Source: a virus (lineage: Duplodnaviria; Heunggongvirae; Uroviricota; Caudoviricetes). Taken from it: a stretch of DNA of 14,590 nt. The stretch lies in IMG/VR virus record IMGVR_UViG_2585427790_000008. One strand, given 5' to 3'. The stretch's first letter is position 1; each line of letters opens with the position of its first letter. The notes beneath the pieces are model-generated. The model worked only from the letters and a program-made list of their open reading frames with translations. It ran no database searches and had not been told where the DNA came from. Position numbers and translations under genes: made by a program. This document shows, in pieces, positions 1 to 14,590 of the stretch.

Positions 1-216
1 GTGAAAGTCATCATTGTTGAAGACGAATTCCTGGCACAACAGGAACTGAGCTGGCTAATTAAAGAGCACAGCCAGATGGAGATTGTCGGCACCTTTGACG
101 ACGGTCTGGACGTGTTGAAGTTTTTGCAGCATAACCGCGTCGACGCCATTTTTCTGGATATCAATATTCCGTCGCTGGATGGCGTGTTGCTGGCGCAAAA
201 CATCAGCCAGTTATAG
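1..216 (+). pseudogene. ypdB: 5' fragment (71 codons) of a LytTR-family two-component response regulator; receiver domain cut off mid-domain by the prophage insertion
   Basis: ORF translation MKVIIVEDEF...FLDINIPSLDG has the receiver-domain acidic pocket (EDE) and the phospho-acceptor Asp in FLDIN; it matches my recollection of the E. coli YpdB N-terminus up to NISQ and then hits a stop (QL*) where the native protein continues. Symbol is from memory, not from a search. Confidence 0.6.
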
Positions 217-224
217 CGCGGCGA

Positions 225-302
225 TTTTTTTGATACCGATTTGCATTTCATTTGATACCGCTGAAAAACGCCGATACGCAACTTATTTGATACTAAATCG
301 GC
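225..302. repeat. Three direct copies of TTTGATAC(C/T) (228-237, 251-260, 286-294) plus a 7-bp inverted repeat CGCCGAT/ATCGGCG (270-276 / 296-302); candidate transposase-binding end sites
   Basis: Repeats read directly from the sequence, sitting between the host junction and the mom stop. This is the position of the attR R1-R3 sites in Mu; the sequences are not identical to the Mu consensus. Confidence 0.3.
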
Positions 303-339
303 GCTTTTCTTTTGAGTTTTAGAATGAGTTTTTAAGCGT

Positions 340-1077
340 TCATTCACTCTCTTTCAAACCAGTTTTAACTGTTTGTGGTTTTGGGTAAGGCTGGACTTTG
401 AATAGCTTTGTGTTAAGGCGTTTTCTGGCTCTCTTGTCCAGAAACCGGATGTAACGAAACTGACGGAATTTATGAACACTGGCTCTGTCGATATTAGCCC
501 GCAGATGTTCACCTCGCTGTCCTCCTCGTTTGATTGCATTCTTGCAAATCTCGTGATACCACTCGCCATCAAGTTCATAGAATGTTGTTTCATGACTGCC
601 TACATAATCAAAATTGCTTGCCTGGTACACGACACCAAGACAGCCACAACGCTCATCTGCAAACGACTGAACCCACTGCACCTGCGGATAAAGTTGTCTG
701 ATTAGTTTGAGCGCGTAACTGATTGCCCTTGATTCGGAGTTTCTCGGCATACAGTCATGCAGCCATAACCGGTTAAGCTCCATATATTCGCGGTTCTGCG
801 TGCCAGTTACGACGCGTGCACCATTGTTTGGATTAAGGGCATAACCCCATTGCATTACGCCAACCAGCTCCCGTTCTGAAAATATGCCCAGATGAAGGTA
901 GGAATTATTTACGAAACGATGGCTGTAATGTTTATTGACGACGACCAGCCGGGCCAGCCAGCAACTTATTGTCTCAACCCGTAACTCACGGGAGCCATAA
1001 CCGACGATATTGTCGTTATAGTGAATAAGTTCAGGCGTGCTGATGATACGGGATGTAACTTGCTTTCTGTTCCCCAC
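340..1077 (-). CDS. mom: Mom-like DNA-modification protein (start uncertain; GTG at 1075-1077 proposed, ORF is open up to 1272)
   Basis: Last gene before the prophage end, same strand as com and overlapping its 3' end, as in Mu. I do not recall the Mom sequence, so the call is by synteny only. Confidence 0.5.
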
Positions 1078-1231
1078 GACAGGATTTCCTTGTGTATGTG
1101 GGGTGCTCTGTGGCGCTCTGAGATGTGATTTGATTGAGGGTTTTACAGCGCGGACATTTAACTTCCAGATAACTGAAGCTGGCTCGTGCCAGTAGCTTGT
1201 TACAATGTCGGCACCGTATGTTTCGATACAT
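1031..1231 (-). CDS. com: Com-like zinc-finger translational activator of mom
   Basis: [44 protein letters not shown] has the CxxC...CxxC pattern and matches Mu Com (IRCKNCNKLL...IRCPRCK...EHP). AGGAGG lies 10 nt upstream of the ATG at 1229-1231. The track ORF starts 15 codons earlier. Confidence 0.7.
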
Positions 1232-1276
1232 GGCCGCATAACCTCCTGCTTTGTTGTTGATATCTTTATCACTCAA

Positions 1277-1298
1277 TCGATCGACAAAAACGATCGAT
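1277..1298. promoter_or_regulatory. Cluster of two GATC (Dam) sites inside the short palindromes TCGATCGA / CGATCGAT, 48-65 bp upstream of com
   Basis: GATC at 1279-1282 and 1292-1295. Mu mom has a Dam/OxyR-controlled GATC cluster upstream of its promoter. Confidence 0.35.
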
Positions 1299-1487
1299 TT
1301 GATTTATTTAATTGATACAACAAATAACACGAAATGTCATTAGCGAAAATTTATGAGTTTGATCACTAATTTTAAACGGTGCTGTAACGCATAAGTGCTG
1401 AATGATTGTACATTTGAATACCGCAAAGCAAACAAATCAACTAATTTATAGAAGTCAATTGGTTAATTGCCAGCGTAAGAGGCTGCT

Positions 1488-1781
1488 ATGGACAATCATG
1501 TAACGACGAGAAATCGAAAAATGATTGAAAATGCGGAAATCTATAATGATTATTTTTCCGATTATTCAGATGCCTGCAAATACAGTTCGAGTGCGGGAGA
1601 GTTCATATGCTTCAACTTTTTTATTAAATCTTATGTTTTTCCTCCACAGCAAGAAGATGGAGGTGTGCCACCTCCTGAAATCACTTTGCACCGTATAGCC
1701 TCCGTCTCAATGATGGAGCAACAGGCTAATGAGCTGTATAGCATTCTGGGAACGATTCTACAAAAGCGTGAATCGGACTAA
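1488..1781 (+). CDS. Hypothetical protein (97 aa), AT-rich, no recognisable motif
   Basis: ORF with AAGAGG 6 nt upstream of the ATG; lies in a low-GC island between com and the esterase cluster. Confidence 0.3.
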   Translation: MDNHVTTRNRKMIENAEIYNDYFSDYSDACKYSSSAGEFICFNFFIKSYVFPPQQEDGGVPPPEITLHRIASVSMMEQQANELYSILGTILQKRESD

Positions 1782-1948
1782 TGATACCGGTTCATTTGCC
1801 TGCCCGGATGGGGAAGCAGGATTGACTGCTCCATAAGCAGCTATATTTCTGAATACGAAATACTATCCAGCGATTACATATGGCTGGATAGCGGCAAAGA
1901 TGTTTTCATTAGTGTCAAACCGGCAGAGGACACCACCGGTTTGTATTG

Positions 1949-2203
1949 TTACATCATGGTACTGTCAGTTCCGGGCTGAGCCGGGTCTGGTTGCTCTGGC
2001 TGCGCGTCGGTTTTCGGCTCATTATCAGCATCACTGGCCGCAACTGCTGGCCCAATAAGTTTTGCCAGCACTTCATCAACGTAAGTGTCGATTTGTGCCT
2101 CAAAATCCTTGCGGACCTGCGCTTTCAGCAACTTATTTACTTCACCGGAATACAGTGCCTGTTTTACCAGGTCTTCAGTGACGGTGCCTTTAATTTCTGG
2201 CAT
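1949..2203 (-). CDS. Hypothetical protein (84 aa), acidic Pro/Gln-rich C-terminus
   Basis: Strong RBS (AAGGAGGATATACATG). Preferred over the overlapping + strand ORF 1946..2332, which has no RBS. Confidence 0.45.
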   Translation of the reverse strand: MPEIKGTVTEDLVKQALYSGEVNKLLKAQVRKDFEAQIDTYVDEVLAKLIGPAVAASDADNEPKTDAQPEQPDPAQPGTDSTMM

Positions 2204-2238
2204 GTATATCCTCCTTATGCGGGAATAAAGCCCTGCAA

Positions 2239-2421
2239 TCAGGGCTGGGTCGGGTCTTTTGGGAGCGGAGTTACCTGCGCTGTTTTACTGAGTTTTTCAG
2301 CTGCTGCGTCCTCAATTTTGCGGCGAACATAATTTCTGATGGCCTTATAACCACCACTCACCAGATATAACGCACATACTGCCGTGCAGAAATACAATAA
2401 AATAAGCTGTAAAAATGTCAT
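2239..2421 (-). CDS. Small predicted single-pass membrane protein (~60 aa)
   Basis: Hydrophobic stretch FLQLILLYFCTAVCALYLV followed by a basic region. GGGAGGG lies upstream of the ATG at 2419-2421; the track ORF starts at an upstream TTG (2433). Confidence 0.4.
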   Translation of the reverse strand: MTFLQLILLYFCTAVCALYLVSGGYKAIRNYVRRKIEDAAAEKLSKTAQVTPLPKDPTQP

Positions 2422-2517
2422 TATCCCTCCCAATTATTGACATGGTGTTGACACCGGTAATATCTGTTAGGTAAAAAGGTGCACTGCATTTTTTGCTTTG
2501 GATATAACGATCTTTTT

Positions 2518-2558
2518 GCCGCCGGTTTCTTGTTTTCCCTTACCGGCGGCATTTTTTT
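2518..2558 (+). terminator. Stem-loop GCCGCCGGT-(15 nt)-ACCGGCGGC followed by ATTTTTTTAT on the + strand
   Basis: Perfect 9-bp stem with a downstream T7 run on the + strand, just 3' of the esterase stop on the opposite strand. The loop is long, so this is an uncertain terminator. Confidence 0.35.
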
Positions 2559-2565
2559 ATCCTGC

Positions 2566-4620
2566 TTACGCGTTATTCACTTCCACCACGATACTGTCAA
2601 TCAGTACCGGGTAAGTCGCATTTTTAGTGATATCGGTCACGCGCAACTTGTCTGCCGTAAACGTGCCGACCGGAGACTGCGACAGCATGAATGGTGTCCC
2701 GTCCTTACCATCAATGACCGGCGTCACCTCAATACTGTTGTTACCGGCAAAACGGAAGCCCAGCGTATGCCATTCGTTATTAAATGCGCCGAATGACCCC
2801 AGCTTCGTGTTCTGCGCCGTGTTTCCTTTGTGATACATCACGTTAAGGTCTGTGGCATCGCTCTGTACGTAGAACGATGCCAGCAGGTTATGACCGGCAT
2901 TTCCTTCCAGAGTAACCCCTTGCGGCAGGGCAGAAACCGGCCAGTACAGCGCCAGTGCGTACTGATTAGCCGTAAGCGCGCCATCGAGTTTAAAACGACA
3001 ACTGACAAGACCACCTTTACCCAGCAGGTCCGCACCATTACCAGCATCATGCTCAAGGTACCAGGGGGCTCTTCCTGTTTCCTTGGTCAGTTTCATTGCC
3101 TTACCCCCGCTGGCTCCGGCATCATCCACGATTTGAGCCTTGCCACCTCCGGCAGCCCAACCCTGTGGTGTCAACCGTCCTTCAGACTCAGATGCCCGGT
3201 AAGCAAATAGCGTACTCATCGTCGTGGTGTCTGCGGGTGGCGTGGACGGTTTTGATGGTGTATCAGGTGACGGCTTCTCATCCGGTGGTGTCACGGTCTG
3301 CCCGCGCATCAGTTCAGCCGTGCGCCCTGCATGGAGCATAATAGCTGAGGCCAGACGGTCTGAAATGACGCCCCTGCGTGCCCATGAGCTGAAATGGCTG
3401 TCACGCTGTGTCGAAACAAAACTGCCCTGGGTTCGGGATGCTGCACCGTAATACCCGACAGCCACAATATCCGGGTCTTCCGCCGGAGCATTCGTTGGCG
3501 TGCTCTGTCCATTCTCATCCGTCAGGAACGGTACAAAGAAAATTTTCTGTGCTTCCTTGCCTTTGTAGCCACCGTATACTGCCTCATATTTATCGGTGCC
3601 AGCGTTTTTCCAGTAATACGTGGTATCACCGCAAATCCACGGCACCGTGGTGGCATTTCCACTCACGCACTGCGCAGCAAGCGGAGCCAGGTCAGTTCTG
3701 AACTGCTGAACCATGGCCGTGAATAAACTATTATGCTGCTGGCTTCCTGAGGCAAGGTCTGCCTCTCCCTGCATCCAGACCACAGCCAGAAGTTTGTTTT
3801 TCGGGTTTTTCGCCAGCGCGACTTTGGTGCGGCTTACCAGGTCCTGATACAGAGGTTTACCGGCCCCCCAGCGTGAAGAATCAGCGGAAGCACCGCTGGC
3901 CTCACTGAATGAGCCGTCGGCTCCAGTGGTGAATGCTGACCCGCCACGACAACAGGGCACCAGAAGTATCCCGGCATTCTGTGGGATATAGGGAAGCAGT
4001 TTTTTGGCAATATGCAACCCCTGACCGACAGTCCCGTACTGGCCTTTTGCCAGATCAGCTTTCGGGTGGTTTATCCCGCTCATATCCTGAACATCATGCA
4101 GGCAGTGGTCTGCCGGAATGATGTCGTTGTATGTACACGACGTACCGTTGGGCGTTACCGTACTGCGGCGTGCCAGTTGCTTAATGCGTGGGTCCGGGCG
4201 GTCAAACGAATCCGGTAACGGCAGCCCCTCGCCGTAGGCCATGCCATTTGACTGACCCGCGAGAATGACAACAAAGTAATATTCCGGCTCTGAACTGCTG
4301 CCATTCGTGCTACCGGAAGGCCCGGCGTTATCCGGTGCATTCCAGTCGGAGGGCGTGAGCGTTCCGGCCACGTCAGATGTGATTGGAATGATGCCAGTCA
4401 CGCCTGAACTGGTGATTTCTGCACTGGGATTACCGGATACCGGCATTACCCATAATGGCTCTTTCGTGCTGAAGCGGATCACGCAGTCTGCGAAGGTGAT
4501 CCCCCCTTTATTACCCGAAGGGCGGAAAGGGCTTTCAATAAATGCCACCGTGCCACCGGCAACCTTGACTGAAAACTCTCCGGGCATGGCGGAGAGCATT
4601 TTCCACTTGGAGTCTGACAT
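2566..4620 (-). CDS. SGNH/SASA-family sialate O-acetylesterase-like protein (prophage NanS-p-like), 684 aa
   Basis: GQSN catalytic-serine motif (VVILAGQSNGMAYGEG) and downstream WMQGEAD motif typical of SASA esterases; Ser/Thr/Pro-rich linkers; long C-terminal beta-rich region. Confidence 0.7.
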   Translation of the reverse strand: MSDSKWKMLSAMPGEFSVKVAGGTVAFIESPFRPSGNKGGITFADCVIRFSTKEPLWVMPVSGNPSAEITSSGVTGIIPITSDVAGTLTPSDWNAPDNAGPSGSTNGSSSEPEYYFVVILAGQSNGMAYGEGLPLPDSFDRPDPRIKQLARRSTVTPNGTSCTYNDIIPADHCLHDVQDMSGINHPKADLAKGQYGTVGQGLHIAKKLLPYIPQNAGILLVPCCRGGSAFTTGADGSFSEASGASADSSRWGAGKPLYQDLVSRTKVALAKNPKNKLLAVVWMQGEADLASGSQQHNSLFTAMVQQFRTDLAPLAAQCVSGNATTVPWICGDTTYYWKNAGTDKYEAVYGGYKGKEAQKIFFVPFLTDENGQSTPTNAPAEDPDIVAVGYYGAASRTQGSFVSTQRDSHFSSWARRGVISDRLASAIMLHAGRTAELMRGQTVTPPDEKPSPDTPSKPSTPPADTTTMSTLFAYRASESEGRLTPQGWAAGGGKAQIVDDAGASGGKAMKLTKETGRAPWYLEHDAGNGADLLGKGGLVSCRFKLDGALTANQYALALYWPVSALPQGVTLEGNAGHNLLASFYVQSDATDLNVMYHKGNTAQNTKLGSFGAFNNEWHTLGFRFAGNNSIEVTPVIDGKDGTPFMLSQSPVGTFTADKLRVTDITKNATYPVLIDSIVVEVNNA

Positions 4621-4705
4621 CGTCTTTTCTGCCTGTTTCTGAATTAAACAGAGTCAGAATAGCGACCGCTGAAAAATATGTGTTTTGCGGAAATTCAAAA
4701 AAGCG

Positions 4706-5277
4706 TCACGGTACTTTTGGTGACGGAGCTGGTGAGGCAGGAAAATAACGATAAAGGGTGGAAAGGCCAATATCAAATATCAGTGCGATTTGTTTACGGG
4801 ACTCGCCATTAGCCAGCAAACGGGCGATTTGCTCCCGCTCTTTCTCTGTCAGTTTCTGAGGTCTGCCGCCATGACGCCCCTGAGCACGGGCAGCAGCAAG
4901 ACCCGCGCGTGTACGTTCAATAATGAGTTCCCGCTCCATTTCCGCCAGCGCGCCCATTATATGGAAAAGAAACGTCCCATGGGAGTGGATGTATCAATAT
5001 TGTCCGTAATGCTGCGGAAGTTAACGCCGCGTTGCCGGAGTTCTTCTGTTAAAAGGACAAGGTGCTGCATACTGCGTCCAAGGCGATCCAGTTTCCAGAC
5101 CAGCAGGGTATCCCCTGGCCGGAGTCGCTTTAATGCGCGTTTAAGTCCGGGACGCTCCCTTGTCTTACCGCTTATTCTGTCTTCGAAAAACAGCTCACAT
5201 CCTGCACATTCCAGCGCATTTCTTTGTAGCGCCGTATTCTGGTCATTTGTTGACACCCTGATATACCCAATCAGCAT
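4706..5277 (-). pseudogene. gin: Gin/Pin/Hin-family serine DNA invertase split by a -1 frameshift
   Basis: N-terminal ORF MLIGYIRVSTNDQ...PMGRFFSI* and C-terminal ORF MGALAEMERELIIERT...STLYRY match Mu Gin either side of ...MGRFFFHVMGALAEMERE. One T is missing from a T-run (+ strand A4 at 4955-4958). Confidence 0.8.
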
Positions 5278-5342
5278 ACGATTTCCTTATTATAAAAAGC
5301 CGGAATTGTCGCATGAGGAATAAAACAGAGTTAATCCTGGCT

Positions 5343-5368
5343 TTCCTGAAAACCTCGGTTTACGGGAA
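5343..5368. other. gix/hix-like 26-bp recombination site TTCCTGAAAACC-TC-GGTTTACGGGAA (invertase-proximal)
   Basis: Imperfect 12-bp dyad half-sites around a 2-bp core, resembling Mu gix and Salmonella hix; sits at the outer edge of the inverted repeat. Confidence 0.6.
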
Positions 5369-5481
5369 ACGGTAAACAGGGCGGCGAATGCCCTGCCATC
5401 GGACGGCACCGCCGTTGCCGCGAACAGGCTGGCAAATGCCCACACAATTAATGGTGTTCCCTTTGACGGGACGCAGGATAT
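5355..5481. repeat. Inverted-repeat copy (proximal), ~127 bp, imperfect, paired with 6547..6673
   Basis: The + strand 5355-5481 aligns by eye with the reverse complement of 6547-6673. Both encode [26 protein letters not shown]...[12 protein letters not shown]. Confidence 0.8.
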
Positions 5482-5707
5482 CACTATCTCATCAGGAACA
5501 GTAACCGCCATAAGACTGGGGTCGGTGACCGCACATATGCCCGGAACATGGGAAAGCTGGGATCTGAATCTGGGGGGCGGCAATGTTCTTACCGGAATTA
5601 AAGTACAGGATGTCGGTAAGAATACGGCAGATAACGTCGGCGGCGTGTATTACCGGCCGTTGCAGTATCTGTTAAATGGAGCATGGGTGACGGCTGCAAG
5701 TATATAA
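5356..5707 (+). CDS. Promoterless alternative tail-fibre C-terminal cassette (Sv'-like), silent in the present orientation
   Basis: Frame open from the crossover site to TAA at 5705-5707. Starts with the same 26 residues as the active fibre C-terminus, then diverges (...[21 protein letters not shown]...YRPLQYLLNGAWVTAASI*). Confidence 0.6.
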
Positions 5708-5715
5708 TGATATTC

Positions 5716-5740
5716 AGAAGGCCTTCCGGCCTTCTTTATT
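5716..5740 (+). terminator. Hairpin AGAAGGCC-TTCC-GGCCTTCT followed by TTTATT, between the convergent cassette and assembly-gene stops
   Basis: 8-bp perfect stem with a T-rich tail on the + strand, located between the stop at 5705-5707 and the minus-strand stop at 5739-5741. Confidence 0.4.
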
Positions 5741-6260
5741 ACTGTGGCTGCTCAGGCCATTTAATGGCGTTAAATTCAGCTTCTGTTTTAATGGCGGGGA
5801 GTTCCATTTTTTTTACCTGACTGATGTATGCCATCCATTGGGTAAGTGCTGCTCTGTCTTCATCGCTGATGGTGCCCAGTTGTAGCTCCGTTCTCCAGTC
5901 ATTAATTTTTTCATATGCCTGATTAAGATATGACTGGCGCATTGCTTCCAGTTTTCTTGCGTAGTTAACCGGAATACGGGAGATTATGCCATTATCAAAC
6001 TTCCAGTTTCCTGAAATATCCGTGCCTTCAGGGAGTTCATCGACCTCAACCACAGAAAACCCCGCAGGATACAGCGCCGAGGCGTCCTGTGATATTGAGC
6101 AGATAACGCCGCTGTCAGGTGTTATGCAAAGTTTATATTTTTTGGTGAATAATGGCAGGGATTCGTAGAAATCCTTACCATCTTCACTCTGGAAATACTG
6201 AACATTATTACCATATGGCATATTTTCAGGATAATAACGGGTTGTATTTTTTAGTTCCAT
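5739..6260 (-). CDS. Tail-fibre assembly chaperone (Mu U / Tfa-like), 173 aa
   Basis: C-terminal region ...ISGNWKFDNGII...LQLGTISDEDRAALTQWMAYISQVK...WPEQPQ resembles Mu U (...LGIISDENKQKLTEWMLYAQKV...FPEQPE); lies immediately downstream of the tail-fibre gene. Confidence 0.8.
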   Translation of the reverse strand: MELKNTTRYYPENMPYGNNVQYFQSEDGKDFYESLPLFTKKYKLCITPDSGVICSISQDASALYPAGFSVVEVDELPEGTDISGNWKFDNGIISRIPVNYARKLEAMRQSYLNQAYEKINDWRTELQLGTISDEDRAALTQWMAYISQVKKMELPAIKTEAEFNAIKWPEQPQ

Positions 6261-6311
6261 AAAATCCTCCTGGAAATAAATCTGTTTTAAAATATATTAT
6301 TTACTGACTAT

Positions 6312-7202
6312 TTATAACTGAGATACCGTAATCCATGTACCTCCGACTAATTTTTGCAGGGGTCTGAATGCTATAAAATCGTTTGAAGCATCAACTTTAC
6401 TGTCAATCTGCAGGCCTGCCATAACATTACCGTACGCAGAGTAATATGCCCCACCGTACATTACCTGCCTGTTCTCTGCTCCCAGCCTGATATCCTGGAT
6501 ATATCGGGAATCCGCATCCTGCTGTGTTATACCAGAAGTGATGTTTATGTCCTGCGTCCCGTCAAAGGGAACCCCATTAATATTTCTTGGGGTGGCGAGT
6601 CTATTCGCGGCAACGGCGGTGCCGTCCGATGGCAGAGCATTCGCCGCCCTGTTTACCGTTTCCCGTAAACCGACGTTATCGATAAAAGCCCCTTTATCCG
6701 GAATGTCTGCGCCGTTCTGCTCCCTGCGCAGGTAACGGTTATCACCTTCGCTTTTGCTGTAAACATCCAGATTATTACGGGCGGTTCCCTTATTCTCCAG
6801 GTCGGCGAGATTCTGATCCTTCGCCAGGGCATTAACGTCAGCGGGACCAAGACTGTTTTTTGTGGCAAGCGTCCCCAGACCAAGATAACCACGGGCCAGA
6901 CGCTGGGCCTCCGCACCGGCATCAGCAATTTCTTTCAGGTTATTTTTCCGGGAAAAGGCATTCGCAGCGATAATGGCTTTAATGGACAGCGTAAGCTGGT
7001 TTAACTGCGCCTTATCCGGCTGAATACTGGCTTCAGCCAGAATATTCAGCAGTTCGGCCTGGAGAATATTCAGCCAGTCCTGACCAATCCAGCTGATACC
7101 TTTTTGTCCGTCACCTTCGGTAAACCAGGTGGTGGTATTACTCTGCGCTGGTGCCAGCGCAGGCATATTCGCCACGCCGGAATTATTATCAACATGAAAC
7201 AT
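6312..7202 (-). CDS. Tail-fibre protein (Mu S-like), 296 aa, with its C-terminal third inside the invertible segment
   Basis: N-terminus [27 protein letters not shown] is typical of Mu/P2-type fibres; start overlaps the upstream stop (TAATG coupling). Confidence 0.8.
6547..6673. repeat. Inverted-repeat copy (distal), within the tail-fibre coding sequence
   Basis: Reverse complement matches 5355-5481 apart from a ~22-bp divergent patch and scattered mismatches. Confidence 0.8.
6661..6686. other. gix/hix-like 26-bp recombination site (distal); reverse complement reads TTATCGATAACG-TC-GGTTTACGGGAA
   Basis: Shares the right half-site and the TC core with the proximal site; the left half-site resembles hixR-type TTATCAAAAACC. 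Confidence 0.55.
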
Positions 7203-7762
7203 TAAATAGTCTCCTCTTCATGGCTGTTTGCATACACGTAAATAAACGTCTGCCATGCAGGCTTATAACGGTTCAGAATACATTCCAGCGCACCGCCTTC
7301 ATAAATACGCAGCGGCGTGAGAATATCATCCAGCACATTCATATTCCGGTAGCCGGTTTCACTGTTAATCGTGACAATACTGACCCACTGTGAATCCGGT
7401 GATGGCTGAATATCTATTTCATAACCAAACTCTGCCGCAAACCGGATATAAAATTCACGGTTAAGAGAGGGTTTCATCCGGTATTTATTCCCGGCATAAC
7501 GCTGACGCTCCTGAATGGTTGCGCCGGTCATATCACATTCCGGTAACCCCAGATAACGCTCCCAGTCTTCCAGCAGCAGACGAGATGAATCAGGAAAACG
7601 TTCTGCCAGCATCTGGTTACCGGTCCAGGAAACACGCTCCGTGGAATGACTGAGGCCCAGGCACAAAGCCGCAAGAACGGATGACGGCCGCTTATCCCAT
7701 GCCAGCCCGTCAGGCAGCAACTGCAACAGGGCACGCTGATGCGGGGTCAGGGTTACAGCCAT
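7202..7762 (-). CDS. Baseplate/tail protein, Mu gp48-like (DUF2313/YmfQ-like), 186 aa
   Basis: Size and position between the J-like baseplate gene and the tail fibre; start overlaps the upstream gene end. Confidence 0.65.
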
Positions 7763-8838
7763 GTGATTTCCCCCACGGTCAGCAACTCTGTATCTCCGGC
7801 CATCACGGACTTCAGCGGGCTGCGAACTTCAAAATCCTCCAGTCCTTTCACCCCTGCAACAGCCCGCCAGAATGATGAAGGCAATACAAGTCCACCCGGC
7901 CGCGATTCGTTATAAAGCAGGTCCGTTAATGCCTGTTTTACGGCAGCCTGATTTTCCGGCGTTTTGGGTACAATCCTGATCTCAAACGCCACCGGCTTAT
8001 TGGTCAGCTTAAACACGCTGATTGTCGGCCCAAGTGGCTGACCAACGGGCTGGCCCGTCGCCGGATCATCATGACTGCGGATATAATCCGCCACCCGCTT
8101 CACATCACCTTCTCCGGGGAAAATGTCAGGGTTATTATCCTGAACAAAAGTCACACCAACACTACCCGCCTCAGGCCATTCAGGCTTACACCATGCCCGC
8201 GTCACGCCCGGTACTTCCCGTGCCCAGCGTTCAAAATCATACTGTGTTCCCCCTGATGGCGGGTTCTGTACCCGGAATACCAGCCTGGACAGCAACTCCG
8301 GCACCGTTTCCACATCCGCACCACCGGTGAGTCCCGTGCCGGTGACCGTGGCTGTCTGGTTGATGCCTGCCTGTGGCGTGATAAAGGACAGGCGGGTTCC
8401 GGTCGGGGTATTTCCAGCGCGCCCCGCACTTTCCGCCTCCACATTAACATTCAGTGTTCCAGCTTTTCCGGTCGCAGAGCCGGTGATGCGGTACACAACA
8501 CCATCGCTTCGCTGAAGGAGTACGCCTTCCGTGATCCCTGCATCCGTGGTCAGCATCAGTTGTACCGGTCCGTCAGCGCGGGAAGCCGGTTTACGGATGA
8601 CACCCCAGAATGCGCAGTGTTTCAGGAGTTCGGCTTCATCAGCTTCTGTCGGAATTATCTGCCGGGAGATCCAGGCCAGATGTTCATGCTCCTGTGCTGA
8701 CAGACCCGCCAGTGCATACGCAATGGCATTCAGGGTGGTTTCATTCACGCCCGGCTGCGAACCGGGCAGGCGCTGGCTGATATCCTGTTGTGTCTGTGTG
8801 ATCAGTTGCGCCAGTGGTAAGGGCTGATAAGGCATCAT
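7753..8838 (-). CDS. Baseplate J-like protein (Mu gp47-like), 361 aa
   Basis: Size and order typical of a baseplate wedge gene; overlapping stop/start coupling with neighbours. Confidence 0.7.
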   Translation of the reverse strand: MMPYQPLPLAQLITQTQQDISQRLPGSQPGVNETTLNAIAYALAGLSAQEHEHLAWISRQIIPTEADEAELLKHCAFWGVIRKPASRADGPVQLMLTTDAGITEGVLLQRSDGVVYRITGSATGKAGTLNVNVEAESAGRAGNTPTGTRLSFITPQAGINQTATVTGTGLTGGADVETVPELLSRLVFRVQNPPSGGTQYDFERWAREVPGVTRAWCKPEWPEAGSVGVTFVQDNNPDIFPGEGDVKRVADYIRSHDDPATGQPVGQPLGPTISVFKLTNKPVAFEIRIVPKTPENQAAVKQALTDLLYNESRPGGLVLPSSFWRAVAGVKGLEDFEVRSPLKSVMAGDTELLTVGEITWL

Positions 8839-9272
8839 TCCCCCTTCATATCAGCATAAAAAATCATCGGATGTCTGCTTCCGTCCGGCAGGGTGATTTT
8901 CACGGAAAGCGAAAGGCGAGCATGCCCCACACGCATGGCATGACATACCACGGATGTGGCAGCACCGCTTTTATGCAGCCACGCCAGCGCTTCATCAGCA
9001 TAGGCCTGTGCACGGCTGACCACGGAGGACAGCGTCTTTTCACGGCTTAACAGCCAGAGACGGGAGCCAACGGGGCGCTCCCGGAAACTGTCTCCCCACC
9101 ATCCCCGACGGTCACGGGTGCCGTCAGGGATTTCATCGGAATCCAGCGCCCGCCTGTCCGTAAACAGTGAAATAATGACCGCAGTCAGCAGGCTGTTATC
9201 CGTCAGAAGATCTGCGCCGTTCAGTTGCAGGGAACCGCAACCCTGATCCCAGACGACAGCAATATCAGCCAT
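8835..9272 (-). CDS. Baseplate protein, Mu gp46 / P2 gpW-like (~145 aa)
   Basis: Start placed at the internal ATG (MADIAVVWDQ...), which overlaps the upstream gene end by 8 nt; the track ORF is extended 71 codons into the upstream gene. Confidence 0.65.
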   Translation of the reverse strand: MADIAVVWDQGCGSLQLNGADLLTDNSLLTAVIISLFTDRRALDSDEIPDGTRDRRGWWGDSFRERPVGSRLWLLSREKTLSSVVSRAQAYADEALAWLHKSGAATSVVCHAMRVGHARLSLSVKITLPDGSRHPMIFYADMKGE

Positions 9273-9879
9273 TCTCTGGTCCTCCCGTTTTGCTGCCTTC
9301 ACCGTTATCGTGATGCACATGACCTGAATAGGTGATCCCGGCAATAACCGCTTCGGACATCGTGAACGTCCCCTGTGATCTTCCGGTGCCGTCAATGGAC
9401 ACATTGCCTTTGACATGCAGGTTCTTATCCACTGTGACATTACCGGTAAAGTGAGCCTCCGGTGTATCCACCTGAACACCTTCATCGGCGTAAATCTCCA
9501 GCGTCTTACAGGTCACAATGATCCGGCCGTTCTTTGTCAGACGTATACGGTGCCCCTCATGGTGATACACGCCGGTATCTCCGGCGGTAAGTCCGGTCGG
9601 GCGACTGCGGCGGTCTTCCACCACAAGCACCACGGCCTGATCCCGTTGTCCGCCAGCACAGGCCAGAAAAACTTCCGCACCAGGCAGGGGGACGCTGATT
9701 TGCCCGTACTGCTGGGGGCGTTCAACGTCATCAAAGGTTTCACCATCCATACCGGTGATTTGCACATTCTGGATTTTCAGCGTGTCCGTTGTGCCGGTCA
9801 GTACACCACGCCCGAACAGCAGACGAACACCCCGCATCACGGGGGCCAGAAGGCGGCTGATGACTTCGTCATTCATCAT
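9265..9879 (-). CDS. Baseplate central spike protein (Mu gp45 / P2 gpV-like), 204 aa
   Basis: Size and order; Gly-rich beta-strand-like C-terminus; coupled to flanking genes. Confidence 0.7.
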   Translation of the reverse strand: MMNDEVISRLLAPVMRGVRLLFGRGVLTGTTDTLKIQNVQITGMDGETFDDVERPQQYGQISVPLPGAEVFLACAGGQRDQAVVLVVEDRRSRPTGLTAGDTGVYHHEGHRIRLTKNGRIIVTCKTLEIYADEGVQVDTPEAHFTGNVTVDKNLHVKGNVSIDGTGRSQGTFTMSEAVIAGITYSGHVHHDNGEGSKTGGPENG

Positions 9880-10993
9880 TGAATTTAATCCCCTGTTTTT
9901 TCATCTGTGCCCGCACGAAGGCGTCCACGTCACCCGCATTTCCGCTTCCGCTGTTTCCCGGCTCTGCCGGAACAATAAAGCCGTCACGGGGTGCCAGAAT
10001 CAGACGGGTGGTTTCGCCGTGATTTGCATCCAGCGAAAACTCCACCTGACAGACAAGAAGATCACGCTCTTCCACTCCGGTGCGGGGAGCCGTGACAGCC
10101 GTCAGCAGGTTGATATCCCACAACTGGCCGTTCTCCCGAAACCAGTGCCGCACGGTGGCTGTCAGGCGCACAGAGCGGGCAACCGCCCGGCGCATTTCCC
10201 GGACAGCCCTCTGGCGTGCACCGTCTGCATCAACAGCATGATCCGCCAGCACAATTTTCGGTCTGTAACGGTGGATGGCACTGTCTGTCACCGTACCAAC
10301 GGGTGCGGCCAGCGTTCCGGCTGTCAGTGCATCCCCGGCATGACCACCACCACGCCCGTGCCCCCGTACACGGTATTCACTGTGGCGCAGACGGTGATCC
10401 ACGTTGTGATCCAAATCCAGCAGATTTTCGCCCAGCGTCAGCGTGTCGCCACGCTGACTGCCGGCCTGAGTGAAAACCAGTTCACCGGCGGCATTACTGG
10501 TTACCAGGACGCCTCTGTGTCTCGCGGCCCGTGTCAGCGCATCTGCCACGGTTTCTGAGTTTTCCAGTGTGAAGGTGGAAAAGTGCCGGGCTGCCGTTGC
10601 ATCATTTACCTGCCAGCGCACCGTGACCCCGAACGGAGCACACAAATCTGAAGCAATGTGCTCCAGCGTGCGGTTCCTCCACTGGCTGCCCGGATGAATG
10701 GCTGAACAGTCCACCAGGTCACCGGTTTTATCCCGTCCGCTGAGCGTGATCTGAAAACGCGTGGCGCTGATGCGCTGCCGGACCTGATCCAGCCAGCCAG
10801 TGATCACAGGCTGACCGTCAATGCGCAATTCCAGAGACTGACCGGCACGGACGGATGACGGAAGGCGTACACCGGGCATCATTACCCCCAGTTCAAAGGA
10901 GCCCGCCAGATGTTCAAGAGAGCGACGAACACTCACCGTCAGCCAGCCGGAAAAAATCTCACCGCCCAGATACAGTTCAACCCTGCTGCTCAC
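9869..10993 (-). CDS. Baseplate hub/tail protein (Mu P/gp44, P2 gpD-like), 374 aa, GTG start
   Basis: Size and order; GTG at 10991-10993 preceded by GGAGGTGA; first gene of the retained tail module. Confidence 0.7.
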
Positions 10994-11046
10994 TAATCAC
11001 CTCCACTGAATGGCCTCCGGGAATGAACAGCGGATCAACAATACCG

Positions 11047-11454
11047 TTACGGCGCACAAAACGTTGCCAGCCGGTACTGTTCCCGGTGGCACGGTACAGG
11101 GTCACCAGTGCAGGCTCGGTGGTACGTACAGTCACTACTGTTGCACCGGGTAACGTTAATACAGCCCATCAGGCGAACCGCCTGAAACAGTGCGCGCAGC
11201 TCCTGGACTGTCTGAGTTTCCACAAACTGCGGCGGTTCCGGCAGTGCGCTTTGTTTATTCCAGTTCTCATACCAGGAGCGCAGGGAAGCAGCCACAGCAG
11301 CGTTATCGCCTTTATATTTTCCCTTACGGAAAGCCGATAATGTGCCGTCGGAAATTCCCGCCTCTCTGGCGATGGCATACTGCGTCAGTACGCCGCCATC
11401 AATAAGTTCATCAATGGTCTTGATTACATCGTTAATATCGGTCATATTATTCAC
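11047..11454 (-). pseudogene. Truncated Mu B-like transposition protein: N-terminal DNA-binding domain only, AAA+ ATPase domain deleted
   Basis: ...AIAREAGISDGTLSAFRKGKYKGDNAAVAASLRSWYENW...LPEPPQFVETQTV aligns with the MuB N-terminus (...LPEPPRFVETQTV); the Walker A box (GNPGVGKT) expected next is absent and the frame ends 35-40 codons later. Confidence 0.75.
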
Positions 11455-11527
11455 CTCGCTTGAGACAGCATTCTCCGAGACTGAAACCTCAAATAACCTG
11501 AGTCACCCCTCGGGTTATTTTTTTATT

Positions 11528-13618
11528 TCAGGCCAGCGGATCACTTTCTTTTAATTTCGCTTCGAGCAGTTGCAATCCCCGCTGGAAATTACGCTCGTAT
11601 TCTTCATCAGGTTCATCGTCAGCGACCGGTTGCTGAACGGTCACCGTATTACCCACAGGGCGGTATATGTTTTCCAGCCAGGGCTCCTGCGGCTTGTGCT
11701 CCAGCACGTTGACAACCTCATCCTCGGCATCACGGATTTTTTCCTCTGCGCGTTTACGCATGCCTTTAAGGCGCTGCTGCTGTTTGTAGTATTCCGCGCT
11801 GACAGGGAAGGCTTCGCGTTTATTGCCGTCCCATACCGCCTCGCAAATCACGCTGCCATCCGGGCGGCGCACGGTAATTCGTTCGGCATCATGAATGTCA
11901 TAGCTGATAAGTACCTTACGGCCATGCTCGTCACGCAGCTCGGGCGCGTAGTAAATATTATTCAGCCAGCGTATTTCACAGCGTCTTACAGGGCGCTCCA
12001 CCATCGGCCGGAACATATCCCGCAGTTCAACATCGGACAGCCATTCAATTTCCGTGTCCTCTTCCGCCAGGCGTTTTTTTCTGAACTCCGCCGGGCTGTA
12101 ATGTTTACCGTTCGGCTTCATGGGTAATTCATCGTGCGGCCGGTTGTTGTACCACTCAACACCGTCACGAATGGCATCAATCAGTTCAGACCAGGACGGT
12201 AAATCACGCATCGCTGACTGCTGCCGGGCGTTCAGCCGTTTGCCCTGTTGCAGGGCACTGAATGCCGAGCGTAAATCGCGGTTGGTTTTACGTAACGTCT
12301 CGCGATCTGCTCCTTTCCCGAAATAGGTGCGGTATTTACGGGCTATGCGCATCGGTAATGTGCGGTTAAGCCGTTCGATAATGCCCCGTCCCTGCGGATT
12401 ACCGGCAATCCCTGTCGGGTGATTAATCCCCAGTCGTGGCAGTATCCCCACAATCTCCTTATCCAGGACGTCGGCGGTTTCCCCGGAGCCATTATCCGAG
12501 TAATACAGAAACGGTTTGCCATGATGGCGAATACCGTGCTGTATGGCACCGGCTACGGCGAAAACATTTTCAGCCAGGTCAAGGCTCCAGCCCACCACAA
12601 AGCGCGTGCCACCGTCGATAACAAAGGTCACTTCCGGTGCGAATGGCCGCCCGTGAACCGGGTGCGCGCATTTCAGCTTCATGCCGTGACCGTCACCAAT
12701 CCAGACATAATTCACCGGCATTCTGGACCAGTCGCGGCGCGTGAATCCCTCAAGCTGACGGTATTCACTGCCAGTTACCCGGCCTTTTTGTTTCACCACT
12801 TCCGGCAGTTTCTTCATTGCGCGGCGAATGGTGTCATAAGAGGGCATGATATCGAGCATATAAGGCTCATCAGCGTGCCGGTGCTGCCATTCAGCAACAA
12901 AATCCTCGTAAGCCTCGGTCATTGGTCGGCCGTTTGACTGGCGATACTGCGCCAGAAATTCGGGCAGCCAGTTAATATCTTCGGCTTTTATTTCCTGGCG
13001 TTTACCCGGTGCCAGTAAAAGCAGGCGTTCAGCGGCGTTCTGTGCCTTGTTAAAGGCCGCAATCCAGCGTTTCAGCGTGATTTCACTCAACGCGCGGCTG
13101 TTTCCCTTTTTGGCGTTCGCCGTCTCAACCATTGCCACAATGCGCTCGTCCAGTTGTGATCGTGCCAGGCTGTTAACGAGGAACCGGATAGCCTTAGCGC
13201 AACTAAAGCCGGGTTGTTGCGCGATTTTCAGCACCTCGCTGACGATCGCTATTCGTGCCTCTGCCACTTTACGTTGGTTTTCAGTCAGGGCATTGAGGCG
13301 TTCGACCATCAGTTGGGGTGATCCGCGATATGCCTCCACCGCATCAACCACGGCAGGTGAGCGTCTGGCCTTTGTCACCACCGGAGCCGGTGATTCATCG
13401 GCTTTTTGCGTCATCAGTTGCAGGGCGTAGCGTTCACGTAATGCCTGCTGCGTCACTTCAGGTAAACAGTCGATGCTGTATTCAGTTGCTTTAGAGCCTG
13501 AGCGACGACGGGAACAACAGCTTTTCCCTTGTACGTAACGTTGTAATGCCTGGCGAATACCTTTTGTTGTAGCAGGCATTCCGGGCGCGCCAATCAGTTC
13601 TTTTGCAATGACATACAT
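11528..13618 (-). CDS. Mu A-like DDE transposase, 696 aa, apparently intact
   Basis: Length and position after ner; candidate DDE residues in WIGDGH, YYSDNGSGE and IIERLNR, spaced as in MuA. Confidence 0.8.
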   Translation of the reverse strand: MYVIAKELIGAPGMPATTKGIRQALQRYVQGKSCCSRRRSGSKATEYSIDCLPEVTQQALRERYALQLMTQKADESPAPVVTKARRSPAVVDAVEAYRGSPQLMVERLNALTENQRKVAEARIAIVSEVLKIAQQPGFSCAKAIRFLVNSLARSQLDERIVAMVETANAKKGNSRALSEITLKRWIAAFNKAQNAAERLLLLAPGKRQEIKAEDINWLPEFLAQYRQSNGRPMTEAYEDFVAEWQHRHADEPYMLDIMPSYDTIRRAMKKLPEVVKQKGRVTGSEYRQLEGFTRRDWSRMPVNYVWIGDGHGMKLKCAHPVHGRPFAPEVTFVIDGGTRFVVGWSLDLAENVFAVAGAIQHGIRHHGKPFLYYSDNGSGETADVLDKEIVGILPRLGINHPTGIAGNPQGRGIIERLNRTLPMRIARKYRTYFGKGADRETLRKTNRDLRSAFSALQQGKRLNARQQSAMRDLPSWSELIDAIRDGVEWYNNRPHDELPMKPNGKHYSPAEFRKKRLAEEDTEIEWLSDVELRDMFRPMVERPVRRCEIRWLNNIYYAPELRDEHGRKVLISYDIHDAERITVRRPDGSVICEAVWDGNKREAFPVSAEYYKQQQRLKGMRKRAEEKIRDAEDEVVNVLEHKPQEPWLENIYRPVGNTVTVQQPVADDEPDEEYERNFQRGLQLLEAKLKESDPLA

Positions 13619-13619
13619 A

Positions 13620-13868
13620 TCATGACGCCTTTCTCATATAGCTCTTAACCTGGTATCGACTGGGCCAGATTTCTTCAGGTGATACCCCAAGAGCATCAGC
13701 AATTATTTGCTGATACGGTCGGCAAGGAGTACGTAATACGCTTTTCAGCGAATCCCTGCTGTAACCAGCCTTTAAAGATAAAGAGCGCAGTGATAAGCCA
13801 GCCATGTGTAAGCGCGCCTTGATGATTTCAGGCGGCCAATCGTGATCTGAAACTTCTCTTCTACTCAT
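13620..13868 (-). CDS. ner: Ner-like DNA-binding regulator, 82 aa
   Basis: ...LSLRSLSLKAGYSRDSL...QQIIADALGVSPEEIWPSRY matches Mu Ner (...LSLSALSRQFGY...EQIIANALETKPEVIWPSRY); RBS GAGGAAG upstream; ends 1 nt before the A start. Confidence 0.85.
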   Translation of the reverse strand: MSRREVSDHDWPPEIIKARLHMAGLSLRSLSLKAGYSRDSLKSVLRTPCRPYQQIIADALGVSPEEIWPSRYQVKSYMRKAS

Positions 13869-14059
13869 ACTTCCTCTATTCTAAAAAGTTACCCGCGCGG
13901 ATATTCGTGCGGATATCTGTACGGGTAAATAATGCATCACCAAAAATACCAAATCAAGGTATTTTTGGTATTTTTGGCTAATTTTTGCTTTTACCCTTAT
14001 TTTTCAATTGGATAAATAGAAAGAAACCTTTCCTTAGAAAAGCACCAAGAGGTATCTTT
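13869..14059. promoter_or_regulatory. Divergent repressor/ner control region with operator-like palindromes
   Basis: CCAAAAATACC-7 nt-GGTATTTTTGG followed by a tandem TATTTTTGG, between divergently oriented c and ner (~13941-13976). Confidence 0.5.
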
Positions 14060-14590
14060 ATGTCGCAGGGAAAAGAACCTGTTATTGAACGTATTGGAAT
14101 GCTTACAAAGCGCTACCCTTCAAGAAGTGCAGCTGCCAGAGCGTGGGGAATCAATATCAACACATTAAACAGCTATTTCAAGGGAGGACAAACACAACCA
14201 GCCCCCAGAGAAAGTATCCTTATACGAATTTCTGAAAGTGAAGGCGTTAGTCTTGAGTGGCTTAAAGAGGGCAAGGGTGAATTACCAAACGATATTGGTA
14301 TTTATGGTAATTTTGGTTGTTCTGGTGATAAGGGAGATCAGCTTACACAGATGCTTTCATTCCTTACGAAAGACGAACGAGAACAGTTAACCAATCTCCT
14401 TGCTCGCAAAGGTGTAGAGACGGTTCTGACACTGCTGAATAAAGAAAACCAGGATTTATTACAACTAGAAGGCAGGAAGCGCCTGGCTGCGTTGATGATT
14501 GTAGATATGCCAGACGATTGCGTCAGAGAGATTTTGGAAAAAACCGAGACAAGTAGGCAATCAAATCCGGTAGAATCTAAAGCGGGTTAG
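14060..14590 (+). CDS. Mu c-type prophage repressor (176 aa); stop codon is the last 3 nt of the window
   Basis: Divergent from ner across an operator region; start chosen at the ATG with AAGAGG 7 nt upstream (the track ORF starts 25 codons earlier at 13985). Confidence 0.65.
   Translation: MSQGKEPVIERIGMLTKRYPSRSAAARAWGININTLNSYFKGGQTQPAPRESILIRISESEGVSLEWLKEGKGELPNDIGIYGNFGCSGDKGDQLTQMLSFLTKDEREQLTNLLARKGVETVLTLLNKENQDLLQLEGRKRLAALMIVDMPDDCVREILEKTETSRQSNPVESKAG

Follow-up and report, generated by a model that had tools for sequence, protein, structure and literature searches.

The window analysed here, meaning the whole stretch of 14,590 nt held in IMG/VR record IMGVR_UViG_2585427790_000008, whose numbering is used below, is very probably a defective Sp18-type Mu-like transposable prophage lying within the chromosomal gene ypdB of E. 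coli. It is a deletion derivative of the Sp18-type prophages and a case of ordinary prophage erosion, in which the first part of the B gene has been joined to the last codons of N, the gene that normally precedes the baseplate hub gene P. The element spans approximately 14.6 kb, from its right end at about position 212 to its left end at about position 14840, some 250 bp past the edge of the window.

The features of the window are collected in Table 1. All phage genes lie on the minus strand except the repressor gene, and a MuA-type DDE transposase gene stands beside ner and this divergent repressor, the arrangement that defines a Mu-like early region. These three genes are full length and collinear with those of the relatives at 99-100% identity, the transposase having the same length as WP_000289280.1 in TOE17 and JMF1. 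Also full length are P, gp45, gp46, gp47, gp48, the tail-fibre gene and the fibre assembly gene. The baseplate wedge and spike genes gp45-gp48 (7202..9879) are 99.84% identical at the DNA level to those of E2865, and no Pfam match was found for the tail-fibre protein. The early reading had listed transposase, repressor and ner as intact, which they are, and had called the baseplate block complete, which is not strictly so, the hub component N/gp43 being gone.

Table 1 Features of the window, in window coordinates, with strand and the evidence for each assignment
Feature	Coordinates	Strand	Evidence
Host ypdB, 5' part (response regulator)	1..212	+	annotated ypdB fragment in AST46, DLI.5a and TOE17; 100% identity over junction
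Right end (attR), repeated TTTGATAC(C) motifs	213..339	-	sequence read
mom	340-1077	-	identical protein annotated in collinear relatives (mom/com pair WP_000528246.1/WP_014334043.1)
com	1031-1231	-	identical protein annotated in collinear relatives (same pair)
SASA esterase/DUF6645 protein, 684 aa, cargo between gin and com	2566..4620	-	Pfam SASA 1.5e-13, DUF6645 7.4e-68
gin invertase pseudogene	4706..5277	-	ORFs of 106 + 83 aa; 1-nt loss in T5 run
Invertible G-like segment	5339..6690		aligns inverted in L004 (DLI.5a), L005 (JMF1), L007 and L015
Fibre assembly gene	5739-6260	-	full length
Tail-fibre gene (S-like), 296 aa	6312..7202	-	ORF; annotated phage tail protein in relatives
gp48	7202-7762	-	Pfam Phage_Mu_Gp48
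gp47	7753-8838	-	Pfam Baseplate_J
gp46	8835-9272	-	Pfam GP46
gp45	9265-9879	-	Pfam Phage_Mu_Gp45, Phage_spike
P/gp44 baseplate hub gene, 374 aa	9869..10993	-	Pfam GpP-like_1st, Gp44-like_2nd, GpP_4th
N/gp43 remnant (DNA circularization/hub protein)	10977..11152	-	last 57 codons + stop; 176 nt
B' fusion ORF, 132 aa	11047..11445	-	MuB residues 1-98 + 34 out-of-frame residues through N remnant
Deletion junction	11151..11152		TA dinucleotide common to both parental sequences
A transposase, 696 aa, intact	11528..13618	-	Pfam Mu-transpos_C 2.1e-17, HTH_Tnp_Mu_1
ner-like HTH gene, 82 aa	13620..13868	-	WP_001310454.1 annotated in collinear relatives; HTH_35
c-type repressor, 176 aa, complete	14060..14590	+	WP_005136380.1 annotated in relatives

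The gin defect is the shortening of a T5 run to T4 near position 4960; with an additional base at 4964, the JMF1 gene is uninterrupted at 190 aa, and the gene is annotated as 'frameshifted' in AST46, DLI.5a and TOE17. The G-like segment next to it contains the fibre assembly gene and, from the tail-fibre gene, the 3' part, which is variable. On the other side of gin, the 684-aa SASA/DUF6645 gene is followed by DUF1378 and DUF826 genes (1949-4620, minus strand in all), and the SASA/DUF6645 region is present between gin and com in all relatives of this Mu-like type. Similar SASA esterase genes are paired with DUF1378 in plasmid matches, and we take the SASA/DUF6645-DUF1378-DUF826 region as a whole to resemble the nanS-p modules of lambdoid Stx prophages. 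A separate observation concerns the operator region between c and ner, where a short run of 9-10-nt units (GGTATTTTT / TTTTGGCTAA, 13958-13994) is the sole indel hot spot among otherwise identical copies, with extra bases in CP050199.1 and in the copy L010 and about 11 nt fewer in TOE17.

The deletion is seen most directly in the B' ORF, which runs from an ATG at 11445 (with a GTG upstream at 11454) to a stop at 11047-11049. Its residues 1-98 are identical, at 98/98 positions, to the 310-aa MuB homologue WP_000129789.1, which itself matches the solved structure of Mu B (PDB 8xvb, E = 3.8e-84) and also PDB 2mqk. The Walker A box of that homologue, GVPGVGKT, occupies residues 101-108, so that the break falls three residues ahead of it; the stump consists of the N-terminal HTH domain and the linker, the Walker A box and everything beyond are deleted, and the ATPase of the MuB-type AAA+ target-DNA activator is therefore missing. 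The first-pass annotation had the B-like frame losing its similarity just where the Walker A box should be and stopping at 11047, and both points hold; the similarity itself extends about 20 residues beyond the '...PEPPQFVETQTV' at which it had been thought to end, the shorter match having come from comparison with the more distant Mu B itself. A Pfam search returned no family for B' or for the N remnant, since neither is long enough and Pfam lacks a model of the B HTH domain; both were identified by direct comparison.

On each side of the join the window follows a different stretch of an intact phage. In several complete E. coli genomes, full-length Sp18-type prophages have a B/A region that matches positions 11151-11700 at 100%, and positions 10400-11152 share 99.9% identity with the N/P boundary in 196 complete E. 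coli genomes; the nucleotide matches have E = 0 on both sides. In a three-way alignment with the two parental sequences, N/P and B/A, the window switches cleanly from one parent to the other at a shared 2-bp TA, which places the join at 11151/11152. The agreement with full-length phages, which on either side continues at 99.9-100% to the breakpoint itself, also disposes of the idea that a short B gene followed by a baseplate module is the natural state of some Mu-like family. The gene upstream of P proved to be N, in a frame other than that of B'; its remnant and the start of P have 17 nt in common, an overlap identical to that in the intact relative E2865, where N is annotated. It had been suggested that a frame outside B might hold the last 30 or so codons of the gene preceding P, and this was correct as to the gene end, which amounts to 57 codons. 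The internal deletion is thus real, and what was described as a direct fusion of truncated B to P is a fusion with the 176-nt N remnant in between. P itself starts with a GTG at 10993, the same start as that of the annotated E2865 gene, behind its native RBS GGAGGTGA and 53 nt from the B' stop, in agreement with the approximately 50 bp and the separate RBS noted from the sequence alone.

In HH35 and 2012C-4502 the two halves lie at coordinates which indicate that approximately 24.0-24.2 kb are missing, in line with the earlier estimate of 20 kb or more. Judged by the gene content of the relatives, the lost early functions comprise the remainder of B and a dozen small genes of the early region, gam among them (kil/gam-type), and the lost regulatory and lysis functions comprise Mor-family activators (Mor/C-type), lysozyme and other lysis genes. 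Gone as well are the head genes (terminase, portal, head morphogenesis protein, protease, major head protein and head-tail connectors) and the tail genes for sheath, tube, tail assembly protein and tape measure, along with most of N. No ORF for any part of the lysis, head and contractile-tail set of a viable phage occurs between B' and P, and the element is predicted to be unable to form particles or to lyse the cell, as had been proposed for particle formation at the outset.

The ends of the element are those of an inserted Mu-like phage, with terminal transposase-binding repeats and a short target duplication, and this phage type occupies many different chromosomal sites. The pentanucleotide CAGTT at 208-212 is repeated at the opposite end when the flanks of both ends are compared, and in citF of JE86-ST05 the 5-bp flank repeat is CGAAT at both ends. 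Where this phage type has inserted independently, its matches to the window start at 211-212. The right end in the window adjoins the 5' part of ypdB, and the left end, TGTAACCAGG..., adjoins its 3' part in JOQT01000004.1 (L008); with the two halves of one gene on the two sides and matching CAGTT repeats, the ends belong to one prophage and not to two. The right terminus reads T-ATAGCGCGG (208-216) and would thus end in TA, as against the canonical CA of Mu. A T precedes ATAGCG in 4/4 independent insertions, which makes the host or phage origin of this base ambiguous, and the flanks of the JMF1 copy (in rhsD) agree at 4/5 bases (ATACT versus ATACG), so the target duplication may be 5 bp with a preference for T or 4 bp with a terminal T.

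Two further observations concern the surroundings of the insertion. In the copy L013 (Logan ERR6375143, at about 6606), 123 bp of ypdB are lost right beside the left end, where the flank TGCTGCAAAAACTGG replaces CAGTTCGCCC; this could be an end-adjacent deletion of the kind that Mu transposase can make, or an assembly quirk. In L010 (GCA_030205795.1, 1-4266), a second early region resembling that of a transposable phage, with repressor, DUF3102, GemA, Mor and D12 methyltransferase genes, adjoins a shortened gene that stands where ypdC would be, immediately beyond the ypdB element. A search of the literature library yielded no paper tying a Mu-like prophage to ypdB.

The junction is not confined to the window. 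An exact-protein look-up in a public protein collection found the 132-aa fusion protein on 43 public contigs (72 index blocks), under the name hypothetical protein and with E. coli 5-172-05_S4_C3 and 5-172-05_S4_C2 given as sources. Ten places were listed out of these 43 contigs, from NCBI isolate assemblies, the closed 5.8-Mb chromosome CP050199.1, ENA gut metagenomes and Logan assemblies, and all ten have the ypdB-ypdC-ptsP context. One of them, JOQT01000004.1, matches the window over 13,544 nt at 100%; overall the listed copies show, relative to the window, 0-5 substitutions per ~13.5 kb, counted outside the invertible segment and the boundary repeats, and 0-1 substitutions in 1.1-3.9 kb of their chromosomal flanks. 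Near-identical copies within near-identical flanks at a single site argue for vertical descent in one clonal group. The two halves were joined in none of 5426 RefSeq complete genomes, a 60-mer over the junction had no match in genome_contigs (one genome per species, and a single E. coli genome), and the 40-mer spanning it, CACTACTGTTGCACCGGGTAACGTTAATACAGCCCATCAG, had none in JGI metagenome contigs; the lone match in the viral collection is a prophage call from an isolate genome.

The ypdB junction and the 1-nt gin frameshift recur unchanged in three complete genomes, those of TOE17, AST46 and DLI.5a, whose prophages are 99.9% identical to the window in the parts shared; the B'-N' junction occurs in none of the three. 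In TOE17, B is full length, the early genes are present, the head module survives in part and the sheath gene for the most part; two other deletions are found there, one of which removes the stretch from the tube gene through gp47. AST46 and DLI.5a have the sheath-to-gp48 deletion in common with TOE17, together with a larger deletion reaching from about residue 282 of A into the sheath gene. Since the window lacks the sheath fragment that these sisters keep, and keeps the P-gp47 genes that they have lost, the deletions are independent, and the ancestor of all of them, as reconstructed from these shared and private features, would be a complete ypdB prophage that already bore the gin frameshift. 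TOE17 differs from the window by about 5 substitutions over 11 kb, which makes all of the decay events recent. Every retained ORF except gin is intact in all copies seen, which might be taken for conservation, but we infer that this reflects the youth of the event and not selection; the ~5 substitutions per 11 kb that separate the sister lineages carry no statistical weight as a measure of selection on these ORFs.

No complete ancestral prophage was found in ypdB, and relatives inserted elsewhere served to reconstruct the undeleted parent. On the two sides of the junction the best matches are of different types, JE86-type for B/A and STEC-type for N/P, which means either that the parent was a mosaic or that 7556-11152 came from elsewhere; this interval is deleted in the sister strains and so has no counterpart in them for comparison. 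As an observation on the phage type at large, nearly every close relative in complete genomes (TOE17, AST46, DLI.5a, JMF1 and 23CRST047) is defective in its own way, the one ypdB insertion showing two to three different deletions, the JMF1 copy in rhsD having its own IS903B-associated deletion and the 23CRST047 copy two insertions of IS66-family elements. The G-like segment, for its part, differs in orientation between copies that are otherwise nearly identical, L007 and L015 having it the other way round from the window and L008, and DLI.5a the other way round from AST46. As gin is frameshifted in every ypdB copy and both orientations nevertheless occur, inversion seems to be ongoing, presumably through a related invertase acting in trans.

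Other origins of the junction were weighed against these data. Short-read assemblers break at repeats, Mu-like prophages are often present in several copies, and no RefSeq complete E. coli genome has the junction, all of which would suit an assembly artefact joining two contigs or two Mu-like prophages. The same junction with its exact product recurs, however, in assemblies from independent projects and assemblers, a closed chromosome among them, and chimeras of assembly form inside shared repeats, whereas the sequences joined here share 2 bp only; the agreement of independent assemblies over so short a match excludes a mis-assembly, to which we accord practically no probability, and the reservation that the junction might be of this kind, raised when it was first described, can be dropped. 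It is also very unlikely, if a little less so, that two prophages recombined, one contributing c-ner-A-B' and the other N'-P through mom, in place of a deletion within one. The sequences to the two sides do have different affinities, JE86-type prophages matching at 100% to the right of the junction and only 92% to its left, and STEC-type prophages at 99.9% to the left and only 94% to the right. The outer flanks are nevertheless the two halves of ypdB with a matching duplication, and the single ypdB prophage of TOE17 shares 99.95% identity with the window in 1-7555 and 99.65% in 11151-14590 (one substitution, the rest being indels in the c-ner spacer), so that both arms were already present in one prophage; JMF1 likewise combines both arm types, at 99.7-99.8%.

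Somewhat more credit, though still little, is due to the possibility that the element is a natural mini-Mu, transposing by means of A without B, or with B, replication and packaging supplied by a co-resident Mu-like helper. Laboratory mini-Mu elements keep both ends, the repressor and A while the internal morphogenesis genes are lost, and the window element, with both ends, c, ner and a full-length A, has this same build. Many E. coli hold several Mu-like prophages (up to 8 matching places per genome), the 123-bp loss beside the left end in L013 is such as Mu transposase can make, and the occurrence of both G orientations despite the gin frameshift suggests that trans-acting phage functions reach the element. 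If it were a mini-Mu, it could be mobilised by a helper, amplified and packaged, with host DNA filling the rest of the headful, and it could confer superinfection immunity or supply variant baseplate and tail-fibre proteins to helpers. Against this, the fusion protein lies at ypdB in all of the listed places, with no second insertion site among them, and the near identity of copies and chromosomal flanks fits vertical descent; the viral-collection match comes from an isolate, the JGI metagenome scan was negative, and the whole ATPase domain of B is absent. The window element differs from its laboratory counterparts, moreover, in being spontaneous in a natural lineage, in keeping the distal tail module and in giving no evidence of movement.

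The account that we favour is accordingly one of decay within a single prophage. A complete Mu-like prophage would have integrated in ypdB, then suffered the 1-nt gin frameshift and then the deletion, in which a single event of illegitimate, homology-independent recombination would have joined codon 98/99 of B to N, 57 codons short of its end, with only the 2-bp TA match at the join and about 24 kb excised. A deletion mediated by the transposase or by the invertase was considered and rejected, neither breakpoint lying at an end of the element or at the repeats of the G segment. The late genes that were left would depend for transcription solely on read-through from the early promoter, and the intact repressor would keep that promoter shut; the element would since have been passed on vertically as an inert remnant in one clonal lineage. 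The breakpoint, the parentage, the gene content, the recurrence in other assemblies, the common insertion site and the separate deletions of the sisters are observed, and the recombination mechanism, the transcriptional silence, the immobility and the neutrality are inferred from them, illegitimate recombination being the simplest reading of the breakpoints.

The Mu late promoters require C (PMC2582627), and the Mor/C-type activators are within the deleted stretch. The annotated P promoter of Mu lies 335-401 nt ahead of its gene, and here just 159 nt upstream of P remain; judged solely by that annotated position in Mu, a promoter at the homologous position would be gone. On the minus (coding) strand between A and P neither a sigma-70-like promoter nor a terminator was found. 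Plys and PI of a full-length relative have TTCTGA..CCGCAAA.CC.GCCC in common, and this motif, at up to 6 mismatches, is absent upstream of P both in the window and in the intact N gene of E2865. The search for a late-promoter motif did not find the TTAT-N6-ATAA dyad, which is a feature of Mu, either. The late genes have lost their activator and probably their promoter too, and the baseplate and fibre genes would now form the end of an early ner-A-B' unit that the intact repressor should keep off.

Among known elements, the closest are the Sp18-type Mu-like prophages (Sp18 of O157:H7 Sakai and its STEC and commensal relatives), whose genes follow the same order and whose DNA, to the left and right of the junction, is 92-100% identical to that of the window. 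Shared with them are the ends, the c/ner/A/B early module, the P-to-U tail module, the invertible segment, the SASA/DUF6645 cargo and com/mom; in contrast to them, the window element is about 24 kb shorter, lacks the B ATPase domain, Mor/C and the lysis, head, sheath, tube and tape-measure genes as well as most of N, and has a frameshifted gin. Sp18 itself has been described as an intact prophage of the Mu-like type (PMC2669165). The relation to Mu (AF083977) is seen mainly in the proteins, through the MuA-type transposase and the match of the B parent to Mu B given above; the DNA is too diverged to align except for 127 nt at the N/P boundary, where the two are similar at ~74%. The element is not a tailocin, only the baseplate and fibre genes being left after deletion of the sheath, tube, tape-measure and lysis genes, nor a phage satellite of the P4-like or PICI-like kinds, every gene being collinear with and nearly identical to that of a full-length phage, and no additional modules being present.

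The significance of the finding lies mainly in annotation: the element should be labelled a defective Mu-like prophage, with B and gin as pseudogenes, N as a fragment and ypdB as disrupted. The insertion splits the gene for the response regulator of the YpdA/YpdB two-component system, and the carrier lineage should lack that pathway. Beyond this, a single ypdB insertion has undergone at least four independent large deletions and a frameshift, and it offers a small and clean example of how fast a prophage can be inactivated by deletion.
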